From an uncultured virus (IMG/VR IMGVR_UViG_3300032167_000030) (taxonomy: Duplodnaviria > Heunggongvirae > Uroviricota > Caudoviricetes), in the IMG/VR virus record IMGVR_UViG_3300032167_000030: 64,000 nucleotides of DNA; one strand, written 5' to 3'. Position numbers and translations under genes: made by a program. Shown piece after piece: positions 4,547-28,409 of the stretch; position 1 is the first letter of the stretch, and every line of letters starts with the position of its first letter. The notes beneath the pieces were generated by a model that saw only the letters and a program-made list of their open reading frames with translations, was not told where the DNA came from and made no database searches.

Positions 4547-5335
4547 ATGATAATTACTTTAACTGGTGCTAATTTTAGCACATCTAACATTGGTACTCTA
4601 TCTTCTTGGAGTATTTCTACTGTTTTAGGTAGTGGTGCTACCTATAGTGGTAATCGTGTTGTTGACAAGGATGCTGCATTAAATGCAACTGTTACTATTG
4701 CTGAAGGCTATGAACTAGGTGCTGCTGGTGTTACTGTTACTATGGGTGGTTCTGCTGTAACTTCTGGCGTTACTGTTAATGGCAATACTATCATTATTAG
4801 TATTGCAAAGGTTACTGGCACTGTTGTTATTAAGGTTCCTACTAAGAATACTGCTACTGGTGAAGATGATAATGGTGGTAATGGAGATGTTGTTGAGCCT
4901 GAAAATCCTGTTGCAAAACATCCATACGCAAATGGGGCAACTATGCCAAGTGACGGTATTATAACTGCAGATATGACTGTAGTTTTAAATCATACCTGGT
5001 TAAATGGAACTGATACTACTTTATTAGACAATCAAGATGAAAGTGCTGGAACAACAAGTACAAACTATTTCTGTTCTTACTTACCTATTGATATTACAGG
5101 TTATACAAAACTTGATATAACTGCAAATAATGAAAATGCAGCTTACTATCAGTTCTTTACTACTGATGGCTCTTATAAATTGACAGGTGCTAGAATTAAA
5201 GTAGACAAAGGTACTACTTTAAATGAACAAAGTATTCCAAGTAAAGCTAAATATTTAATTGTAGCTCATTCTCGTATTAAGGACGATGGTTTAACATATA
5301 GTTACTTCCCCACTAATTTAAAAATTTATAAATAA
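4547..5335 (+). CDS. Tail-associated beta-rich protein
   Basis: Strong RBS; C-terminal domain paralogous to the C-terminus of 5355-7595 (YYQF..YLIVAH..YFPT). Confidence 0.65.
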   Translation: MIITLTGANFSTSNIGTLSSWSISTVLGSGATYSGNRVVDKDAALNATVTIAEGYELGAAGVTVTMGGSAVTSGVTVNGNTIIISIAKVTGTVVIKVPTKNTATGEDDNGGNGDVVEPENPVAKHPYANGATMPSDGIITADMTVVLNHTWLNGTDTTLLDNQDESAGTTSTNYFCSYLPIDITGYTKLDITANNENAAYYQFFTTDGSYKLTGARIKVDKGTTLNEQSIPSKAKYLIVAHSRIKDDGLTYSYFPTNLKIYK

Positions 5336-5354
5336 TAATTAGGGGGTATTTAAG

Positions 5355-7595
5355 ATGTCTTATTTAATTCAAAATTTTGAAAAAGGTCAAACTTTAGAGG
5401 CTTCCCATTTAAATTTAATTGAACAAGGTATCGTTCAATCAGATAAAGAGAGAATTTATCCTATTACATCTACCGGATATTACTCAGCTTCTTGTTCTGC
5501 TGCTTCAAATTCTTCTTATGAAAAATGCACTTTTGATGTAAGAAAATATAGAGGCAGTACAATTATAGTTAATGCTTATCCAAATTCAACTGGATATTGT
5601 ACTTTAATTGGTTCCTCAAAAACAGATATAATTGAGCAGTGGAATTCTGGAACTTGCAAGTATTTGAGTATTCCAGAAACAGCAACAATGCTTTATATTT
5701 CAAATGATTTTGCTAATTTCTCTGATTTTAATATTGAAGTTCCAAAATCTAAAGAACGCCATAAAGGTTTTTTATATTTTGCTGATTTTGCTAATCCCGA
5801 TTCTTTAGATTACAACGATTTTGTAGACCATAAAATCAATGGTACTTTTAAAGATGGTGGCTTAGTTTTAAATACTGGTATTGGAAATGGAATCTTATTA
5901 AATAAAGTTATTTTAGCAGATGCTCAAACTATGGCTGTTGAAGTACAAACAATCACCAATCAAGAAGAAATCTATTTAAGTACTAAAACTACACAAGGTT
6001 CCTGTTCACATGGAACTATGTTATGTGTTAATTTTAAAAATAAAATTATGAAACTAGCAAAAGGAAGTAATGGAGGTAATGTACCTTCTTCTTTCTATAA
6101 GAATGTAGATATTAGCGATGTAGTTGATTCAATTGGTGGTCAAGATAATAATCATCTATTTACAATTAAATTAGAAAAAGCTGATGGTCCTATTAGAGCA
6201 ACAATTATTAATGATCATACAAATAAATCAGTAACTTTCTTAGCCGGATTAGAAACAGTAGCACAAAAGGATGAGTCAAGTACTGGTTTGACTAGAGGAA
6301 AGAGTCCAGTTGGACGTATGTATGATTCTCCACAATTGTTTGTATCATCTGGCTCTCCAGTTATTCGTAAATGGTATGGTCGTACTTGGTGTACTAAACC
6401 CAAGGTTATGTTCTTTGGAGATAGTATTACTCAGGGAACTCATAATCTACCAGACGATGCCTTTGCAATTAGATGTGGTAGATATTTTGGCAATTCTATT
6501 GCTTGTGGTAGAGGTTCTGGAGATATTATGTGTTGTGTTAATACTGTACGTAGTATGGTTCCACGTTTAAAACCTGAAGCTATTGTAGTTACAATCGGCA
6601 CTAATGGTGGTAATAAATATCTATATCAAAAGTTTATTGATATATGTGAGTATTTTAATGTAATTTTAATTTTAAATACTTGCTGGGCTTGTGATGGTCG
6701 TGCTGGAAGTATTAAACCTTTAAATGAACACATTGTTTCTTTAGGACAATTTGGATGTCGCCTTGATTTATTAACTAGTAAAAATAATGTTATTTCTGGT
6801 GGTCAGGATAAAACTTATTTTGCTTCTGATGGAACTCATTTAAGTCCATTAGGAAATACATTGACATATGAAGCTATTACATCTGAATTTAGCTGGTTGC
6901 GTGATAATAGTAACAAGGCTGAATTTGATAGTGAATATAAAGTATATCTTGTATTAGATAGTGGTATTGAATACAGTGGTCCTTCTACAGTACAAAAAGG
7001 ACAGAGTTTTAATGCTACTTTAACTTTAAATAGTGGTTGTTCTTTAGGTAGTGAAGGTATTAGCATTATGATGAGATATGGTGAATTAAAAAATGCTTAT
7101 ACTACTTCTGGAGATGTTACCACTATTAACGTACCAGACGTTAATGGTGATATCTATATCTATGCTGACGTTAAAGGTGGTACTAGTAGTGGTGAAAGTG
7201 AATTACCTGAAGATTTACCAACCGAAGATAAAGTGTTAACTGAATCTGATTTTGAGATATTTGATAATACTTGGATTATGAGTAGTGGTACATCTTTAGC
7301 AACTGCTCAAGATGGTTATTATACTGCTTATTGTCCTATTAAAGGATATTCCAAAATTGATATAACTGCACAAAATAATTTTACCACTTATTATCAGTTT
7401 AGTATTGATGAAGACTTAATTGATTTGAGCGGTTCTCGTCAATCTGTTGAAAAAGGACAGAGCACAACTAATATAGCTGTACCTTCTAACGCTCAATACT
7501 TAATTGTAGCACACCATAGAACTAATTCTACTGATGCTAATGCTGTTGAAGGATATGCTTTATACTTCCCAACTTATATTAAGGCTTATATTTAA
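5355..7595 (+). CDS. Tail spike/receptor-binding protein with SGNH/GDSL esterase domain
   Basis: FFGDS block I, G block II, IGTN block III, DGTH block V; BppU-like N-terminus (QNFEKGQTLEASHLNLIEQGI). Confidence 0.75.
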   Translation: MSYLIQNFEKGQTLEASHLNLIEQGIVQSDKERIYPITSTGYYSASCSAASNSSYEKCTFDVRKYRGSTIIVNAYPNSTGYCTLIGSSKTDIIEQWNSGTCKYLSIPETATMLYISNDFANFSDFNIEVPKSKERHKGFLYFADFANPDSLDYNDFVDHKINGTFKDGGLVLNTGIGNGILLNKVILADAQTMAVEVQTITNQEEIYLSTKTTQGSCSHGTMLCVNFKNKIMKLAKGSNGGNVPSSFYKNVDISDVVDSIGGQDNNHLFTIKLEKADGPIRATIINDHTNKSVTFLAGLETVAQKDESSTGLTRGKSPVGRMYDSPQLFVSSGSPVIRKWYGRTWCTKPKVMFFGDSITQGTHNLPDDAFAIRCGRYFGNSIACGRGSGDIMCCVNTVRSMVPRLKPEAIVVTIGTNGGNKYLYQKFIDICEYFNVILILNTCWACDGRAGSIKPLNEHIVSLGQFGCRLDLLTSKNNVISGGQDKTYFASDGTHLSPLGNTLTYEAITSEFSWLRDNSNKAEFDSEYKVYLVLDSGIEYSGPSTVQKGQSFNATLTLNSGCSLGSEGISIMMRYGELKNAYTTSGDVTTINVPDVNGDIYIYADVKGGTSSGESELPEDLPTEDKVLTESDFEIFDNTWIMSSGTSLATAQDGYYTAYCPIKGYSKIDITAQNNFTTYYQFSIDEDLIDLSGSRQSVEKGQSTTNIAVPSNAQYLIVAHHRTNSTDANAVEGYALYFPTYIKAYI

Positions 7596-19605: not shown

Positions 19606-20310
19606 TTTTACATTAAAGATATATGGTACTAATCACAGACATGATTCATTAGCCGCATATGATACTGTTAAAATCATTGATTCATTAGCAAGTGTGATAC
19701 TATTACACTATATGATTCATTGATTTTATGTGTTACTATCAGTTTTTGTGATTCATTTCATCCCCTTGATACAGGTTAGGGATTCAGTGATTCATTACAT
19801 ATATTTGATACTATTCAAAGCTATGATTCATTCCCATTCAATGATACTATCAATTCAAGTTGATTCATTACATATCTTTGATACTTTAAGACCTCCTATG
19901 ATTCATTAGTAAGTCTTGTTACTAAAAATTAGATTCAGTGATTCATTACATTTCTATGATACTATCTATAGTATGATTCACTATTTCCAATTGTTACTAT
20001 TGCACTACATAGTTCATTTCTGGCTACTGATACTTAATTCACTATATTGATTCATTATAACCATGTGATACTTTTAATACATCTGATTCATTAATTAGCA
20101 TTGTTACTATCGTCTACACTGATTCATTAGAATAAACTGTTACTTTTTTGTAGTATTGATTCATTAATTTCCTCTGTTACTTTTTAATACGTTTAATTCA
20201 TTATGAGAGGATGATACTATAGGATTATATGATTCATTATACCAACATGTTACTTTAAATACATCTGATTCATTGTGTACCTTTGATACTATTCGCCTAC
20301 GTGATTAAAA
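19606..20310 (-). repeat. TIGR-like dual-repeat guide-RNA array 1 (orphan), ~19 units of 35-40 nt (mode 36)
   Basis: Plus-strand TGATTCATT-like repeat at 19642,19678,19713,19749,19788,19824,19861,19899,19939,19974,20010,20048,20084,20120,20157,20194,20230,20266, alternating with TG(A/T)TACT usually 9 nt later; intervening segments mostly unique. Confidence 0.9.
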
Positions 20311-23876: not shown

Positions 23877-23998
23877 TCCTATTTCATTAAAAATCTAAGA
23901 GGTATACTCAATTGAGTATACCTCTTATTTATTCTTTTAATTTTTACGGAACAATACTATAAAGTATTTAAACGTACCGAGTTAAAGGAGTGAAATAT

Positions 23999-25870
23999 AT
24001 GTGGCCCAAATCCAATACTGAAGAATATAAGAAAATTGTCTATGATTTAGTAGGTGATGAGTATACTGTTATAGGTGAATATGTAAATGATAAAACAAAA
24101 ATTAGAATGAAACATAATGTATGTGGTAAAGATGACTGGTATGTAACACCTTGTCATTTTAAAGATAGAGAAAATAAAAAAGGTACTAGATGTCCTAAAT
24201 GTAATGGAAATCTTAAAAGTACTACAGAAAAATTTAAAAAAGAAGTTTATGATTTAGTAGGTAATGAGTATACTGTATTAGGTATTTACAAAAATAACAA
24301 TACTGATATAGATGTAAAACATAATGTATGTGGTACAATTTATCCAATAATTCCTGCTAGTTTTAAAAAAGGAAAAAACAGATGTAAAATATGTTTACAA
24401 AAAGAAAAGGATGAAAAATTTAGAAAAAAAGTATTTGATTTAGTCGGTGATGAATATATTCCAACTACACCTTTTATTAAAGATAATAAAACTATAACGA
24501 TGTTTCATTCAGTATGTGGTCAGACATATGAAACTACACCTCATGCTTTTACTACAGGTGGAGTTAGATGTAAAATATGTTCATCATATACAACTGAAAG
24601 ATATAAGAAAGAAGTATTTGATTTAGTTGGAGATGAATATACTGTTATAGGTGAATATGTAAATGCTGATACTAAAGTAAGAATGAAACACAATATCTGT
24701 GGTAAAGATGATCTATATATAACTCCTCATTGTTTTAAACAAGGTACTAGATGTAAAGATTGTAGAATAAAAGATGCAACCTTAACTCAAGAAGAATTTG
24801 AAAAACAGGTTTTTGATCAAGTTGGAGATGAATATACTGTTATAGGAAAGTATATAAACTCTAATGTAAAAATAAAAATGAGACATAATACTTGTGGAAA
24901 TGAGTATGAAGTATTACCTCATCATTTTACATCAAAAAAGAGTAGATGTGCTGATTGTTCTCTTATTAAAGGTTATAGTAATGGTGAAAAAGAAATCATG
25001 GATTTTATTAAATCCATTTATAATGGTGAAATAACTGAAAACAACAGAACTATTCTAAATGGTAAAGAATTAGATATCTATATTCCAGATAGAAACTTGG
25101 CTATAGAATTTGATGGATTATATTGGCATTGTGAAAAGAATATATCTGATAAGGATTATCATCTTAATAAAACTGTAAACTGTCGTTTACAGAATATTCG
25201 TTTAATTCATATCTTTGAAGATGAATGGAATTTCAAACAGAATATAGTAAAATCTAAGATAAAACATATTCTTGGTTGTAATAACAATACTAAAATTAGA
25301 GCTAGTAAATGTTATATAGAAGAACTAGACTCAACTACTAAGAATCAATTTCTTAATGAAAATCACATTCAAGGTGAAGATAAAGCTAACATAAAACTTG
25401 GTTTATGGTATCCTATTAATGAAGAAGAACATAGACTAGTAGCGGTTATGACATTTTGTAAACCTAGATTTAATAAGAATCATGATTATGAATTATCTAG
25501 ATTTGCTATAGATATAGAATATCAAGTATATGGTGCATTTGATAAATTATTTAAGTATTTTAAAGAAAACTATGAATGGAATAGCATTATAACATATGCT
25601 GATAGAAGATGGTCTATAGGTGGACTATACGAGAATACTGGATTTAAATTAGATGATATAAGTAAACCTAGCTATTTTTATACTAATTTTACAAATAGAG
25701 AGAATAGAGTTAAATTCCAAAAACATAAATTAGAAAAACTGTTTCCAGAGTATTATGATGAAAATTTAACAGAAAAAGAAATTATGGATAAAACAGATTA
25801 TTATAGAATTTGGGATTGTGGAAATTATGTATATACATATATAAAAAATCCTGATAATAATTCTGACTAA
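23999..25870 (+). CDS. Free-standing homing-endonuclease-like protein: five Zn-ribbon repeats plus PD-(D/E)xK/Vsr-like nuclease (Hef-like)
   Basis: Repeats of VGDEYTVIGEY..HxxCG..RCxxC; ELDIYIP..AIEFDGLYWH; C-terminal ELSRF, TYADRRWS, IWDCG. Confidence 0.75.
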   Translation: MWPKSNTEEYKKIVYDLVGDEYTVIGEYVNDKTKIRMKHNVCGKDDWYVTPCHFKDRENKKGTRCPKCNGNLKSTTEKFKKEVYDLVGNEYTVLGIYKNNNTDIDVKHNVCGTIYPIIPASFKKGKNRCKICLQKEKDEKFRKKVFDLVGDEYIPTTPFIKDNKTITMFHSVCGQTYETTPHAFTTGGVRCKICSSYTTERYKKEVFDLVGDEYTVIGEYVNADTKVRMKHNICGKDDLYITPHCFKQGTRCKDCRIKDATLTQEEFEKQVFDQVGDEYTVIGKYINSNVKIKMRHNTCGNEYEVLPHHFTSKKSRCADCSLIKGYSNGEKEIMDFIKSIYNGEITENNRTILNGKELDIYIPDRNLAIEFDGLYWHCEKNISDKDYHLNKTVNCRLQNIRLIHIFEDEWNFKQNIVKSKIKHILGCNNNTKIRASKCYIEELDSTTKNQFLNENHIQGEDKANIKLGLWYPINEEEHRLVAVMTFCKPRFNKNHDYELSRFAIDIEYQVYGAFDKLFKYFKENYEWNSIITYADRRWSIGGLYENTGFKLDDISKPSYFYTNFTNRENRVKFQKHKLEKLFPEYYDENLTEKEIMDKTDYYRIWDCGNYVYTYIKNPDNNSD

Positions 25871-25909
25871 TTCATTAAAAATTTCCTTTCTTTATACATT
25901 TTCTTAACA

Positions 25910-25950
25910 AAAAAAGAGGATAGACTTTAAATAAGTCTATCCTCTTTTTT
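25910..25950. terminator. Bidirectional terminator between the endonuclease and array 2
   Basis: AAAAAAGAGGATAGACTT-N5-AAGTCTATCCTCTTTTTT. Confidence 0.85.
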
Positions 25951-26448
25951 TCATTATGCGTATCTGATACTATAAACTACTTTGATTCATTGAAATAATA
26001 TGATACTTTTGAAGAGCTTGATTCATTTTTAAAAGTTGATACTATTTTTAATATTGATTCATTTCGGGTTATTGATACTATAGGTCGTCGTGATTTTTTG
26101 TTATATAGATGAAATTCTAAAATCCTCCTTTGATTTTTTTGAATAATTTCATTCAGTGATACTGATACTATATTTGGGTATGATTCATTTATTCCTGTTC
26201 TGTTACTATAATCTTCATTGATTCACTTATATCAACTGATACTATATCGCAGTATGGTTCATTTAGATGACCTTGATACTAAATTTCTGATGATGATTCA
26301 TTTACAGCTAATGATACTATAATGCTCATTGATTCATTTATTCACCATGTTACGAATGTCTATAAGTGATTCATTATCATTTTTGTGATACTGTTTTTAT
26401 GGATGATTCATTATTGATGTATGATACTATATTAAGTAGTGATTAAAA
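25951..26448 (-). repeat. TIGR-like dual-repeat guide-RNA array 2 (8+4 units), directly downstream of the Tas-like gene
   Basis: Same repeats as array 1: TGATTCATT-like at 25983,26019,26055,26181,26219,26255,26294,26330,26367,26404, alternating with TG(A/T)TACT; ~55-nt interruption at 26096-26148. Confidence 0.9.
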
Positions 26449-26475
26449 CAATTAAAGAAATTACATCAAATCCTC

Positions 26476-27747
26476 TTACTTCAAACCAAGAATATTTTTA
26501 TTAGGTGCTTCCATGATATGAACATGACCAAGATGAACTTCAACAAAGGGTCTAGGAGGCTTAACCCCATTCTCATACTCATACCAGACTTCGAACAAGT
26601 GAGAAAGGAAGATCTTAACAGCATAACGCTTAGCCATAGCAATCATATGAGCCATAGGAAGTTTACCAGATTCATAAGTAGCTCTAGTCTTCACATTCTG
26701 AATGTTCTTTTCTTCCAATGCAAGCTTAGCTGCTTCAGCAAAACCACCAGCTTCATTCTTATCAATATAGAACTTCAGCTTTTCAGCATAAAGACCACCA
26801 TAATAAGACTTATAGACAGGCTTACCATTTTCATAAATAGTATTACCATCCTTATCTTTTTTAGTACCAGAAAGCTTTTGAAAACTTTCACCGCACTTCC
26901 AACAAAGAACTCTGAACTTAGGATTATAGTCAAGCTTCACACCCTTCTTACGAGGAGCACGATGACCTTCCCAACCTGCATATCTCCAAATAGAACCTGC
27001 AGTTTGACACTTAGAGATATCAATATAAGAAAGCAAACCTGCAGCTAGAACAGGACCAATACCCTTAGTAGCAATAAGCCATTGACCCATTTTATCATGT
27101 TCAACATAATCCTTCAGCCACTTAACAATAATTCCCTCAATTTCCTTGAATCCAGCATTAACATATGCAAAGGAAATATTTTTTGGATTATTATTGTTAT
27201 TAGTTGCTACACTAGTTCCACTATTATCAAGCTGGAACTGACGGTTACCACCAGCAATTCTAAATGCCTGAATATCATAATACTGGCTTACAAGACTAGT
27301 TACTTCAGATCTAGAAGTTACAGGATTATTCTTAACGGTCTTATTAAAACCTTTTTCAAAGATGTCCTTGAAATCAACAGTTTCCTTTTCTTTTTCTTTC
27401 TTTTCATTAGTAGAAGATTCTTTTTCTTCTACAGATTCATTCATTTCAAGTTCTTCATTAATCTCAATTTCATCATCTACATCATTAATGAAAACATTCA
27501 TTTCAATTTCGCTATCACTGATGAGTTCAGTAGGAATACCAGTTTGTTCAGCAATAGAAATAAGTACAGAACAAATATCTTCACCATTTCCATTATTTAC
27601 TAAGTGTTTAAACAGGCATTTCTCAAAGTTTGCGAGTTTCGTTTTAATTCTATAAGGTTTGCTCAAACTATTGTTTAAGCCCTCGATCATATCTCTATAA
27701 TCTCTAGCAATCTCCTTATAAGAACTCTTATCATTAGTGTTTTTCAT
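26476..27747 (-). CDS. Nop/IS110-C-terminal-domain RNA-binding protein (TIGR-associated, TasA-like) with uncharacterised N-terminal extension
   Basis: Coiled coil (YYDIQAFRI..NR), KGIGPVLAAGLL, SIWRYAG, YNPKFR, YY..Y...K, HMIAMAKRYAVKIFLSHL; no recognisable DEDD RuvC or HNH domain; adjacent 36-nt array. Confidence 0.85.
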   Translation of the reverse strand: MKNTNDKSSYKEIARDYRDMIEGLNNSLSKPYRIKTKLANFEKCLFKHLVNNGNGEDICSVLISIAEQTGIPTELISDSEIEMNVFINDVDDEIEINEELEMNESVEEKESSTNEKKEKEKETVDFKDIFEKGFNKTVKNNPVTSRSEVTSLVSQYYDIQAFRIAGGNRQFQLDNSGTSVATNNNNNPKNISFAYVNAGFKEIEGIIVKWLKDYVEHDKMGQWLIATKGIGPVLAAGLLSYIDISKCQTAGSIWRYAGWEGHRAPRKKGVKLDYNPKFRVLCWKCGESFQKLSGTKKDKDGNTIYENGKPVYKSYYGGLYAEKLKFYIDKNEAGGFAEAAKLALEEKNIQNVKTRATYESGKLPMAHMIAMAKRYAVKIFLSHLFEVWYEYENGVKPPRPFVEVHLGHVHIMEAPNKNILGLK

Positions 27748-27805
27748 TGTTACTGTCTCCTTTGTGTTGTAATGATTAGTAATGTTTAGTCATTATGATA
27801 CTTAT

Positions 27806-28039
27806 TTATCTAGATATGATAGAAAAACTATCATGATCTTGCAAAGCTAAAGTGGAACCATTATCCCAATTCATATGAATTTGACCGATATCATCTACAA
27901 AAGTAACATCTCCTTCAAGACCATATGGCATCTGATCTTCACCTACCATTTTATATAGCCGAATTCTAGTTCCTTTAGGATAAGCTTTTTTTAACAACTC
28001 AACCTTTTGCTTGCTATTAAAGTCTCTTGTACACATCAT
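27806..28039 (-). CDS. DUF4314-like small protein
   Basis: YPKGTRIRL..M......G.V..VDDIGQIHM.WDNGS.LAL; ATG 28039 after AAAGGAG. Confidence 0.8.
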   Translation of the reverse strand: MMCTRDFNSKQKVELLKKAYPKGTRIRLYKMVGEDQMPYGLEGDVTFVDDIGQIHMNWDNGSTLALQDHDSFSIISR

Positions 28040-28208
28040 TTTTAATTCACTCCTTTTTGATTTATTTTTCTTTAGTATACTATCTTTAAAATATATACTT
28101 AAAAATATTAAAAATACGTTTCTCATTATATGTCCATAAACGTTAAAAATACATTTAAACATATATCATAATAACGATACAAATACTAAAATAAAGGAGA
28201 TTATCACA

Positions 28209-28409
28209 ATGAGCTTTGAAGAGACTTTTAAACAACTATTAGAGAACTTTCCAGTATTAGATAAGATTAAAGAAGATGTATGGTTTATTTCACATGAAAA
28301 CGAACTAATTCTTTGTACCAAAAGTAAGAATCACATTGTAAATCAACAGGACTGTCTAGAATTATCTCAGTTATTCGCACTACTAGCTACTGCATTTGAG
28401 GAGGTTTAA
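28209..28409 (+). CDS. Hypothetical protein
   Basis: RBS AAGGAG. Confidence 0.6.
   Translation: MSFEETFKQLLENFPVLDKIKEDVWFISHENELILCTKSKNHIVNQQDCLELSQLFALLATAFEEV

Follow-up and report, generated by a model that had tools for sequence, protein, structure and literature searches.

TIGR-Tas systems are compact RNA-guided DNA binders that work free of a protospacer-adjacent motif (PAM), and their TasA proteins are now engineered with fused effectors. According to the accessible parts of the published accounts, an array of the tandem interspaced guide RNA (TIGR) type is built from two alternating short repeats, edge and loop, with ~9-nt spacers in a 36-nt unit (PMC12045711), and TasA binds 36-nt tigRNAs and recognizes 18-bp targets, the two 9-nt spacers pairing with opposite strands (PMC12045711; bioRxiv 10.64898/2026.09.09.750476). 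TasA binds DNA and represses transcription without cutting, and in dual-repeat Tas proteins a C-terminal Tyr/His loop processes the pre-tigRNA (bioRxiv 10.64898/2026.09.09.750476). A coiled-coil hairpin is the dimerization domain in solved Tas structures, and TasA, by definition a solo Nop domain, "lacks any accessory domains" (PMC12045711); its N-terminal region is also described as disordered or unresolved in published work, and a preprint on the cryo-electron microscopy structure of PlTasA reports an unresolved N-terminal loop. Here, we analyze a tasA gene in a 64,000-nt stretch of DNA (the window) from an uncultured virus, IMG/VR IMGVR_UViG_3300032167_000030, whose jumbo-phage record measures 319,626 bp at 28.6% G+C with a CheckV completeness of 100%. 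The Tas core and the arrays of this locus are of an already known kind, and its novelty is a TasA with an orphan, predicted helical head on an acidic tether.

A predicted folded head in front of a nuclease-less Tas core

A preliminary description of the locus, made from the letters of the DNA, had drawn attention to positions 27320 to 27747, i.e., residues 1 to 142 in the 5' third of the tasA open reading frame (ORF). Confidence of the AlphaFold2 models is given below as the predicted local distance difference test score (pLDDT), and the parts of the gene and its product are as follows.

26476..27747, minus strand: tasA gene, a 423-aa ORF (stop codon included) for a nuclease-less TIGR-associated protein with an N-terminal extension.
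27757..27762, minus strand: Shine-Dalgarno sequence AAGGAG, read from the sequence, 9 nt upstream of the ATG at 27745..27747.
27493..27747, minus strand: N-terminal head, residues 1 to 85, a predicted four-helix domain whose last helix is taken as 73 to ~85.
27634..27666, minus strand: invariant loop LSKPYRIKTKL, residues 28 to 38, basic and aromatic, between helices 1 and 2.
27382..27492, minus strand: acidic tether, residues 86 to 122, delimited by composition and a pLDDT of <50.
27313..27381, minus strand: conserved pre-coiled-coil segment, residues 123 to 145 (TVDFKDIFEKGFNK..NPVTS), delimited by alignment and BLASTP starts.
27097..27312, minus strand: coiled-coil hairpin, residues 146 to 217, with AlphaFold2 helices at 146 to 175 and 191 to 217 and a pLDDT mostly >90.
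26479..27096, minus strand: Nop-type RNA-binding C-terminal domain, residues 218 to 423, recognized by a pLDDT of 93 to 98, invariant columns, and Foldseek.

Residues 1 to 105 were folded alone by AlphaFold2 from an alignment with the homologues P0001 and P0002 (three sequences in all). The model has helices at residues 5 to 26, 35 to 52, 58 to 69, and 73 to 93, a predicted template modeling score of 0.66, and pLDDT block means of 62, 91, 92, 93, 93, 79, 93, 81, 50, 42, and 43. With a pLDDT of 91 to 93 across residues 11 to 50 and <50 across residues 86 to 105, this profile suggests that residues ~5 to 85 make up a compact helical domain and that the chain is of low confidence from residue 86 onward. 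The same head helices return in a model of the full-length protein at a pLDDT of 63 to 85, followed by residues 82 to 120 at ~45 to 53. The apparently helical region of ~85 residues in the preliminary description thus reappears as four predicted helices, and this region and the charged linker behind it do precede a coiled coil, at residues 146 to 217.

The full-length model was built on 102 sequences (the query and 101 homologues; alignment A2) and reached a mean pLDDT of 83.9, with the core at >90. Against the PDB, Foldseek matched it to TasH (9vzx_A, E 1.1e-6) and TasR (9mty_A, E 1.7e-6), target-normalized TM-scores against Tas structures ranged from 0.52 to 0.75, and the recombinases IS621 and ISCro4 came next (E ~2.6e-3 to 8e-3). 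The homology shared with other Tas proteins starts at about residue 123 (TVDFKDIF...). Directly downstream of the gene lie an array and a hairpin.

25947..26444, minus strand: TIGR array 1, dual-repeat, ~11 units in two sub-arrays.
25909..25951, minus strand: terminator-like hairpin with 19-nt arms, 100% complementary, and A/T runs on both sides.

In the arrays of this phage, copies of the edge repeat AATGAATCA alternate with those of the loop repeat (A)TAGTATCA at intervals of 18 nt, giving 9-nt spacers and a 36-nt unit, and array 1 ends with a truncated edge repeat, AATGA, followed by the hairpin with its 19-bp stem and a T run. Because the predicted fold matches TasH and TasR and an array with these units, spacers, truncated edge repeat, and hairpin is adjacent, we assign the window protein, on its model, to the nuclease-less Tas proteins of the TasA kind. 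An IS110 transposase identity was rejected: there is no DEDD domain, and the only Pfam match, Transposase_20 (PF02371; E 0.27, 12.1 bits), falls under the cut-off of 21.3, notwithstanding the label "transposase" of PHROG 4285, which matches residues 139 to 416 (E 8.7e-38). The Nop domain carries a net charge of +13, and the C-terminal region contains the nearly invariant H408 and H410 and conserved Tyr residues, candidates for the Tyr/His loop.

N-terminal to the coiled coil, residues 1 to 122 lack a nuclease domain of the HNH or RuvC kind (Pfam at E<=1; predicted all-helical). Nor was a catalytic motif seen in the head or tether, in agreement with the preliminary description: the prediction is all-helical, Pfam returns no family at E<=1, and the single His and two Cys of residues 1 to 122 are not conserved in P0002. 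The same description held that known Tas or IS110 proteins carry RuvC or HNH at this position, which is true of TasH and TasR but not of most Tas proteins, since TasA proteins have nothing there according to the accessible text of PMC12045711. The protein is TasA-like in having no nuclease, yet it is not a "solo" Nop protein because a predicted folded head of ~80 residues stands before the core. No folded non-nuclease N-terminal Tas domain is described in the accessible parts of PMC12045711, bioRxiv 10.64898/2026.09.09.750476, and the PlTasA preprint; their supplements or TIGRSafari may annotate one.

An orphan domain conserved in a diverged relative

The head is an orphan to which no fold family is assigned. 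Candidates weighed for it were the ATP-cone, with its Pfam signature PF03477 and a fold of a beta-hairpin plus four helices, and the BTG/Tob domain, judged by whether a fold match stood out from the background. Searched by itself, it reached a best E of 0.097 in PHROG, 0.2 among PDB sequences, and, by Foldseek, 1.2 in the PDB and 0.74 in BFVD; the ESM Atlas gave no usable match and VIA no significant one. The structure prediction and fold search thus yielded a confident helical domain with no significant fold match. No match at E<=1 came from tblastn of the head against 50,697 phage records, and no paralogue at E<=10 from its own 319,626-bp record. An exhaustive phmmer search with residues 1 to 95 in 1.84 billion representatives produced 4 matches at E<=0.001. 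One is P0001; the others, a HYR-like, a cadherin/Big_9, and a ~52-aa tandem-repeat protein, are long repeat proteins whose scores are summed over 5 to 8 stretches and which were judged false. P0002 was not among these matches and is assumed to share one 50% cluster with P0001. A word-index search limited to residues 1 to 120 found P0001 only. Pattern scans with the two-sequence head alignment pointed to 0 viral, 3 metagenome, and 0 genome contig loci, and none of the three was confirmed: L005 and L007 are spurious, with the seeded peptide in unrelated frames only, and L006 repeats the E-value, identity, and matched range of L007.

The whole protein fared differently. A word-index search collected 121 homologues at E<=0.001, and all counts here cover the 120 that are listed. 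By BLASTP, the alignments of 117 of them start no earlier than query residue 86, those of P0001, P0002, and P0007 being the exceptions; the long acidic N terminus of P0007 is unrelated to the head (best BLASTP E 0.43). Counting the window protein, the head is therefore common to three distinct sequences, the other two being P0001 and P0002. P0001 (413 aa) has an identical head and differs by a 10-aa tether deletion and one substitution, and P0002 (471 aa) shares 44% identity over 85 aa of the head (pairwise E 4e-13). The 11-mer LSKPYRIKTKL is unchanged in all three, and the motifs GIPxELIS and FIND are conserved as well. Segment by segment, identity between the window protein and P0002 is 43% in the head, 43% in the pre-coiled-coil segment, 66% in the coiled coil, and 79% in the Nop domain, versus 29% in the tether, where 34 residues face 77 with 43 gap columns. 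An alignable head with an invariant motif beside a tether of such different length and sequence suggests that the head is under constraint and that the tether is free to vary.

Within the same family, the Tas protein of a 299-kb phage (locus L001; P0006, 349 aa) sits in a syntenic locus and has a short tail only, no head. Since only 2 of the 120 listed homologues have the head and a syntenic phage lacks it, the head was gained or lost in a particular lineage, at the 5' end of tas, and is no general trait of Tas proteins. The preliminary description had proposed a new module, and this proposal stands insofar as the region is predicted to fold, is non-catalytic, belongs to no known family or fold, and is kept in P0002; the module is also very rare and lineage specific. 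Disorder and a lack of conservation among homologues, which would have spoken against it, apply to the linker, which is low in confidence and unconserved, and not to the head, which is predicted to fold and is conserved in P0002.

These figures bear on whether the extension has been selected for at all. It could be neutral or near-neutral baggage, recently captured or arisen de novo at the 5' end without a selected function, as its extreme rarity would suggest (117 of the 120 listed homologues align only from residue 86 or beyond), together with the absence of head relatives from the 1.84 billion representatives, the headless syntenic relative, and a tether derived from slippage repeats. This account is rather improbable, because the fold is predicted with confidence from only three sequences, 44% identity and an invariant 11-mer persist while the tether of P0002 has diverged past alignment, and the TasA protein is identical on 21 contigs.

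An error of annotation, with the true start downstream or with a separate head gene fused by misassembly, is barely credible. Most homologues do start near query residues 95 to 135, but the frame is continuous, a strong AAGGAG stands 9 nt before the first ATG, and a reading of the sequence found no GGAG-type site before the internal Met codons M20, M83, and M102, so the annotated start, called into question in the preliminary description, is the real one. Moreover, the order of head, tether, and core recurs in P0002, and the junction is crossed without a single difference in contigs of other runs. The gene is covered without any differing letter by contigs of four further runs; contig X5 (record 8) spans 26400 to 27760 with 0 differing letters. 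As the exact TasA protein is recorded on 21 contigs and identical contigs come from four runs, the tasA ORF is intact and real and not an assembly artifact. Diverged contig pieces match tasA in conserved stretches of its core only and come from other Tas genes. The fecal metagenome runs that hold the phage also hold contigs 85 to 90% identical to the tasA core (26882 to 27087 and 27232 to 27283), and hence other Tas-encoding elements co-occur in these samples.

A tentative role for the head

Our tentative reading is that the head may serve an RNA-guided repressor as a tethered module for binding or as an adaptor, with the loop as its binding surface. By analogy with other members of the family, the core (residues 123 to 423) would dimerize, process both arrays into 36-nt tigRNAs, and bind 18-bp DNA without cutting it. 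Onto this core, the lineage would have gained a "head on a string," a four-helix head of ~80 residues and a disordered tether of 35 to 77 residues. The non-catalytic head would bring or hold a phage or host factor at the DNA site chosen by the tigRNA, the invariant loop, a candidate binding site, being the interaction surface, and the tether would supply only reach and negative charge. We infer the binding role and any partner, next to an observed architecture, conservation pattern, rarity, and Tas membership and a predicted fold. It is less likely than not that TIGR-Tas has here its first effector fusion that is both natural and non-nuclease, with a head that recruits a factor such as RNA polymerase, a trans-acting nuclease, or a protein for silencing or partition; recruitment of RNA polymerase or a trans-acting nuclease, as put forward in the preliminary description, is pure conjecture.

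Several points weigh against an adaptor head. Only three distinct sequences carry the domain, and the case for constraint depends on a single diverged homologue, so that recent common descent could partly explain the resemblance. The head seems dispensable for Tas function, since the syntenic locus L001 keeps the DUF4314 and tas genes without it. The predicted confidence of the head drops to a pLDDT of 63 to 85 in the full-length model. Finally, a basic loop would suit nucleic-acid binding as well as protein binding.

The last point opens another possibility, that the loop (SKPYRIKTK) makes an extra nucleic-acid contact, binding the flanking duplex, the displaced strand, or the pre-tigRNA and stabilizing the roadblock. 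Four Lys/Arg and one Tyr in the invariant loop are consistent with this, as are the AT hooks that the homologue P0017 has at the same position. In the accessible text of bioRxiv 10.64898/2026.09.09.750476, TasR proteins with a dead RuvC domain keep their DNA contacts. However, the head as a whole is approximately neutral (net charge -2), its long tether, being acidic, would repel nucleic acid, and it matched no nucleic-acid-binding family or fold, which makes such a contact quite unlikely.

The acidic tether

Residues 86 to 122 contain 16 Asp/Glu and 5 Lys/Arg. Within them, residues 89 to 108 have a net charge of -11 with Ile, Leu, Met, and Val interspersed, and residues 109 to 122 are rich in Lys and Glu; the string DVDDEIEINEELEMNESVEEKESSTNEKKEKEKE, quoted in the preliminary description as a highly charged linker, corresponds to residues 89 to 122. 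The epithet is deserved: of the window's 50 open frames that reach 150 aa or more (15,694 segments of 34 aa), only tasA has a segment at least 61% charged with a net charge of -11 or lower. Tandem Repeats Finder reports an 18-nt tandem repeat at 27436 to 27476 (period 18), which encodes E-I-E-I-N-E and then E-L-E-M-N-E, with a third copy, E-I-E-M-N, upstream; the periodicity is due to the duplicated E-[IL]-E-[MI]-N-E codons. The tether looks to be built by 18-nt duplications, and this repeat and the 10-aa deletion in P0001 suggest that it evolves by slippage.

An intragenic tigRNA in the tether was considered, given AATGAATC on the sense strand, and rejected: a loop repeat at the proper distance is missing, and 57 nt, not 36, separate the two copies of GAAATGAATG.

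The charge of the tether allows an explanation in which the head plays little part. The acidic tether, perhaps capped by the head, could fold onto the basic surface of the Nop domain and coiled coil as a nucleic-acid mimic, acting as an autoinhibitor or specificity filter that, until displaced by a true target, keeps non-specific DNA binding down. Other DNA-binding proteins offer a comparison in their acidic tails. Residues 89 to 108, at -11, would face a Nop domain at +13, and acidic, hydrophobic-laced tails recur in headless near relatives (P0004, -6; P0007, -18; P0011, -6; P0013, -4; P0059, -13), implying that the tail may be a more general feature than the head. Such tails are, however, not universal in the near clade (P0005, +1; P0006, +2; P0012, +4), and it would be left unexplained why the head should fold and keep an invariant basic loop; we therefore consider autoinhibition unlikely. 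A complex prediction of residues 1 to 90 with residues 122 to 423 returned no answer, with scores of 0.01 and 0.00 where the mark was 0.32, and constitutes evidence neither way.

A further alternative treats head and tether as a capsid-targeting propeptide that steers TasA or its ribonucleoprotein into the phage head, where the prohead protease would cleave it and the complex would be injected with the DNA. The circumstantial hints are the 320-kb jumbo phage genome and the motifs of S-x-E and I-x-E type in the tether (SVE at 105 to 107 and INE at 96 to 98), which seem to resemble the protease sites of phiKZ-like and T4-like phages. By chance alone, an E-rich stretch should contain such three-residue motifs, and the syntenic relative lacks the extension; a propeptide is very improbable.

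The N-terminal slot across Tas homologues

What other Tas proteins carry in the place of the head was examined in alignment A2. Left out of it were 19 of the 120 listed homologues (P0029, P0048, P0063, P0069, P0084, P0087, P0096, P0097, P0103, P0105, P0106, P0108, P0109, P0110, P0112, P0114, P0116, P0118, and P0120) on the grounds of a split alignment, a large insertion or N-terminal addition, truncation, or greatest distance. In A2, a median of 35 aa precedes the coiled coil: 4 homologues have at least 100 aa there, 8 have 60 to 99 aa, 51 have 30 to 59 aa, and 38 have <30 aa.

The survey of homologue N termini thus found the head in 2 of the 120 listed proteins and other elements elsewhere. 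Besides the acidic tails, there are AT-hook motifs in P0017 (Pfam E 7e-4), similar RGRP stretches in P0014 and P0018, and a 218-aa extension with a BspA-type leucine-rich repeat (LRR) in P0029 (PF13306, E 2.7e-7). P0049 and P0054 have N-terminal extensions that are helical too but bear no relation to the head (hhalign probability <1%). Judging from these sequences, the N terminus of nuclease-less Tas proteins is a modular slot, of which the head in the window protein is one rare occupant.

Variation is also seen elsewhere in the family. P0028, P0040, and P0042 (446 to 485 aa) have C-terminal extensions of ~150 aa without a Pfam family, a second variable end, and P0048 (711 aa) and P0105 (636 aa) have intein-like insertions (Pfam matches to Hint and LAGLIDADG), with the Tas core in two BLASTP segments.

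TIGR arrays and genomic setting

Two further features complete the locus.

19610..20306, minus strand: TIGR array 2, with the same edge and loop repeats, ~14 to 18 units, 6 kb from tasA, with its own hairpin.
27806..28039, minus strand: DUF4314 gene, directly upstream of tasA and co-oriented (Pfam PF14192, E 1.2e-23).

Array 2 contains 15 exact copies of AATGAATCA. Array 1 is split at ~26100 to 26157 by a ~60-nt non-repeat stretch containing AAAGGAGG and has a second irregular insert, of 27 nt, near 26345 to 26370; several units in both arrays have 10- to 12-nt spacers or degenerate repeats. A pattern scan of the whole record for TIGR units gave 16 forward, 0 reverse, and 0 control matches and only these two arrays, and the record holds a single tas gene. 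Outside the window and far from both arrays, a lone strict match to a tigRNA unit was seen at G001:C1:266957 (locus L023), reading AATCA, 9 nt, AAAGTAACA, 9 nt, and AATGA, which may be a chance match or a solitary unit.

Self-targeting was assessed by scanning the whole phage record with the 25 parsed tigRNA units of both arrays, in both spacer arrangements and with gaps of 0 to 2. At up to 1 mismatch, 0 sites were found in the record (0, 0, and 2 in shuffled controls), and at up to 2 mismatches there were 26 sites versus 17, 13, and 11 in the controls. The scan gives no evidence that the phage targets its own genome, and no self-targeting is obvious in the sequence.

Between array 2 and tasA lie unrelated genes, i.e., a putative deaminase (recognized by eye), a 517-aa ORF for which Pfam has no family, one for an HU-like protein, and a 626-aa ORF (23990 to 25870, plus strand). 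The last has no Pfam family at E<=0.01 and consists of about five repeats of a 70- to 80-aa module (..EVYDLVGDEYTVIGEY..HNxCG..C..C..) and a distinct C-terminal half. On the other side, a divergent 66-aa ORF (28209 to 28409, plus strand) lies beyond the DUF4314 gene. Locus L001 has the 66-aa ORF, DUF4314, and tas in the same arrangement (4645 to 5906 of the 299-kb phage), and loci L002 to L004 have tas without a DUF4314 neighbor. A scan for sigma-70-like promoters was uninformative (11 sites versus 16.2 expected). Among the runs listed, none of RNA covers positions 25900 to 28200, which speaks neither for nor against expression of the locus.

Comparison with known systems and implications

The window protein shares with the TasA proteins FpTasA, PlTasA, and MbTasA (PMC12045711; bioRxiv 10.64898/2026.09.09.750476; 10.64898/2026.08.11.744272) the coiled coil and Nop domain, the lack of a nuclease, and a phage origin, as well as an adjacent array with 36-nt units, 9-nt spacers, and a terminal hairpin; it differs from them in its predicted folded head of ~80 aa, invariant loop, and acidic tether. 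With TasH and TasR (PDB 9vzx, 9w04, and 9mty), it has in common the core fold (Foldseek E ~1e-6) and the placement of an accessory domain N-terminal to the coiled coil. In contrast to theirs, however, its domain is predicted to be all-helical, has no conserved catalytic set of His, Cys, and acidic residues and no HNH or RuvC match, and is joined by a flexible tether of 35 to 77 aa instead of a compact junction. The IS110/IS621 bridge-RNA recombinases have a related C-terminal RNA-binding fold, but the window protein lacks their DEDD/RuvC domain and bridge RNA and has a TIGR array.

Closer to home, P0029 with its LRR, P0017 with its AT hooks, and P0007 and P0004 with their acidic tails fill the same slot on a nuclease-less core, while the N-terminal additions of P0007, P0049, and P0054 have no sequence relation to the head. 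The likeness to effector fusions of dCas9 or TasA, such as TasA-VPR in the accessible text of bioRxiv 10.64898/2026.08.11.744272, is a functional analogy only: the fusion would be natural here, and no sequence or fold relation exists. The same holds for the nuclease-free type IV and V-M CRISPR systems, an analogy limited to a programmable, non-cutting DNA binder with an optional tethered effector.

As the head is found in three known sequences only and its function is conjectural, the significance of the finding is limited. Within these bounds, a binding partner of the head could reveal a native output of TasA beyond steric repression, and the head itself could be of use to tool builders as a small adaptor domain of natural origin. 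The helical head, LRR, AT hooks, and acidic tails found in one slot, unrelated to each other, widen the picture of a Tas N terminus that holds HNH, RuvC, or nothing. If the head does act as a tethered adaptor, a passive TasA roadblock would become a programmable recruiter, and, together with the LRR and AT-hook relatives, it would mark the Tas N terminus as a place into which effectors other than HNH and RuvC can generally be plugged.

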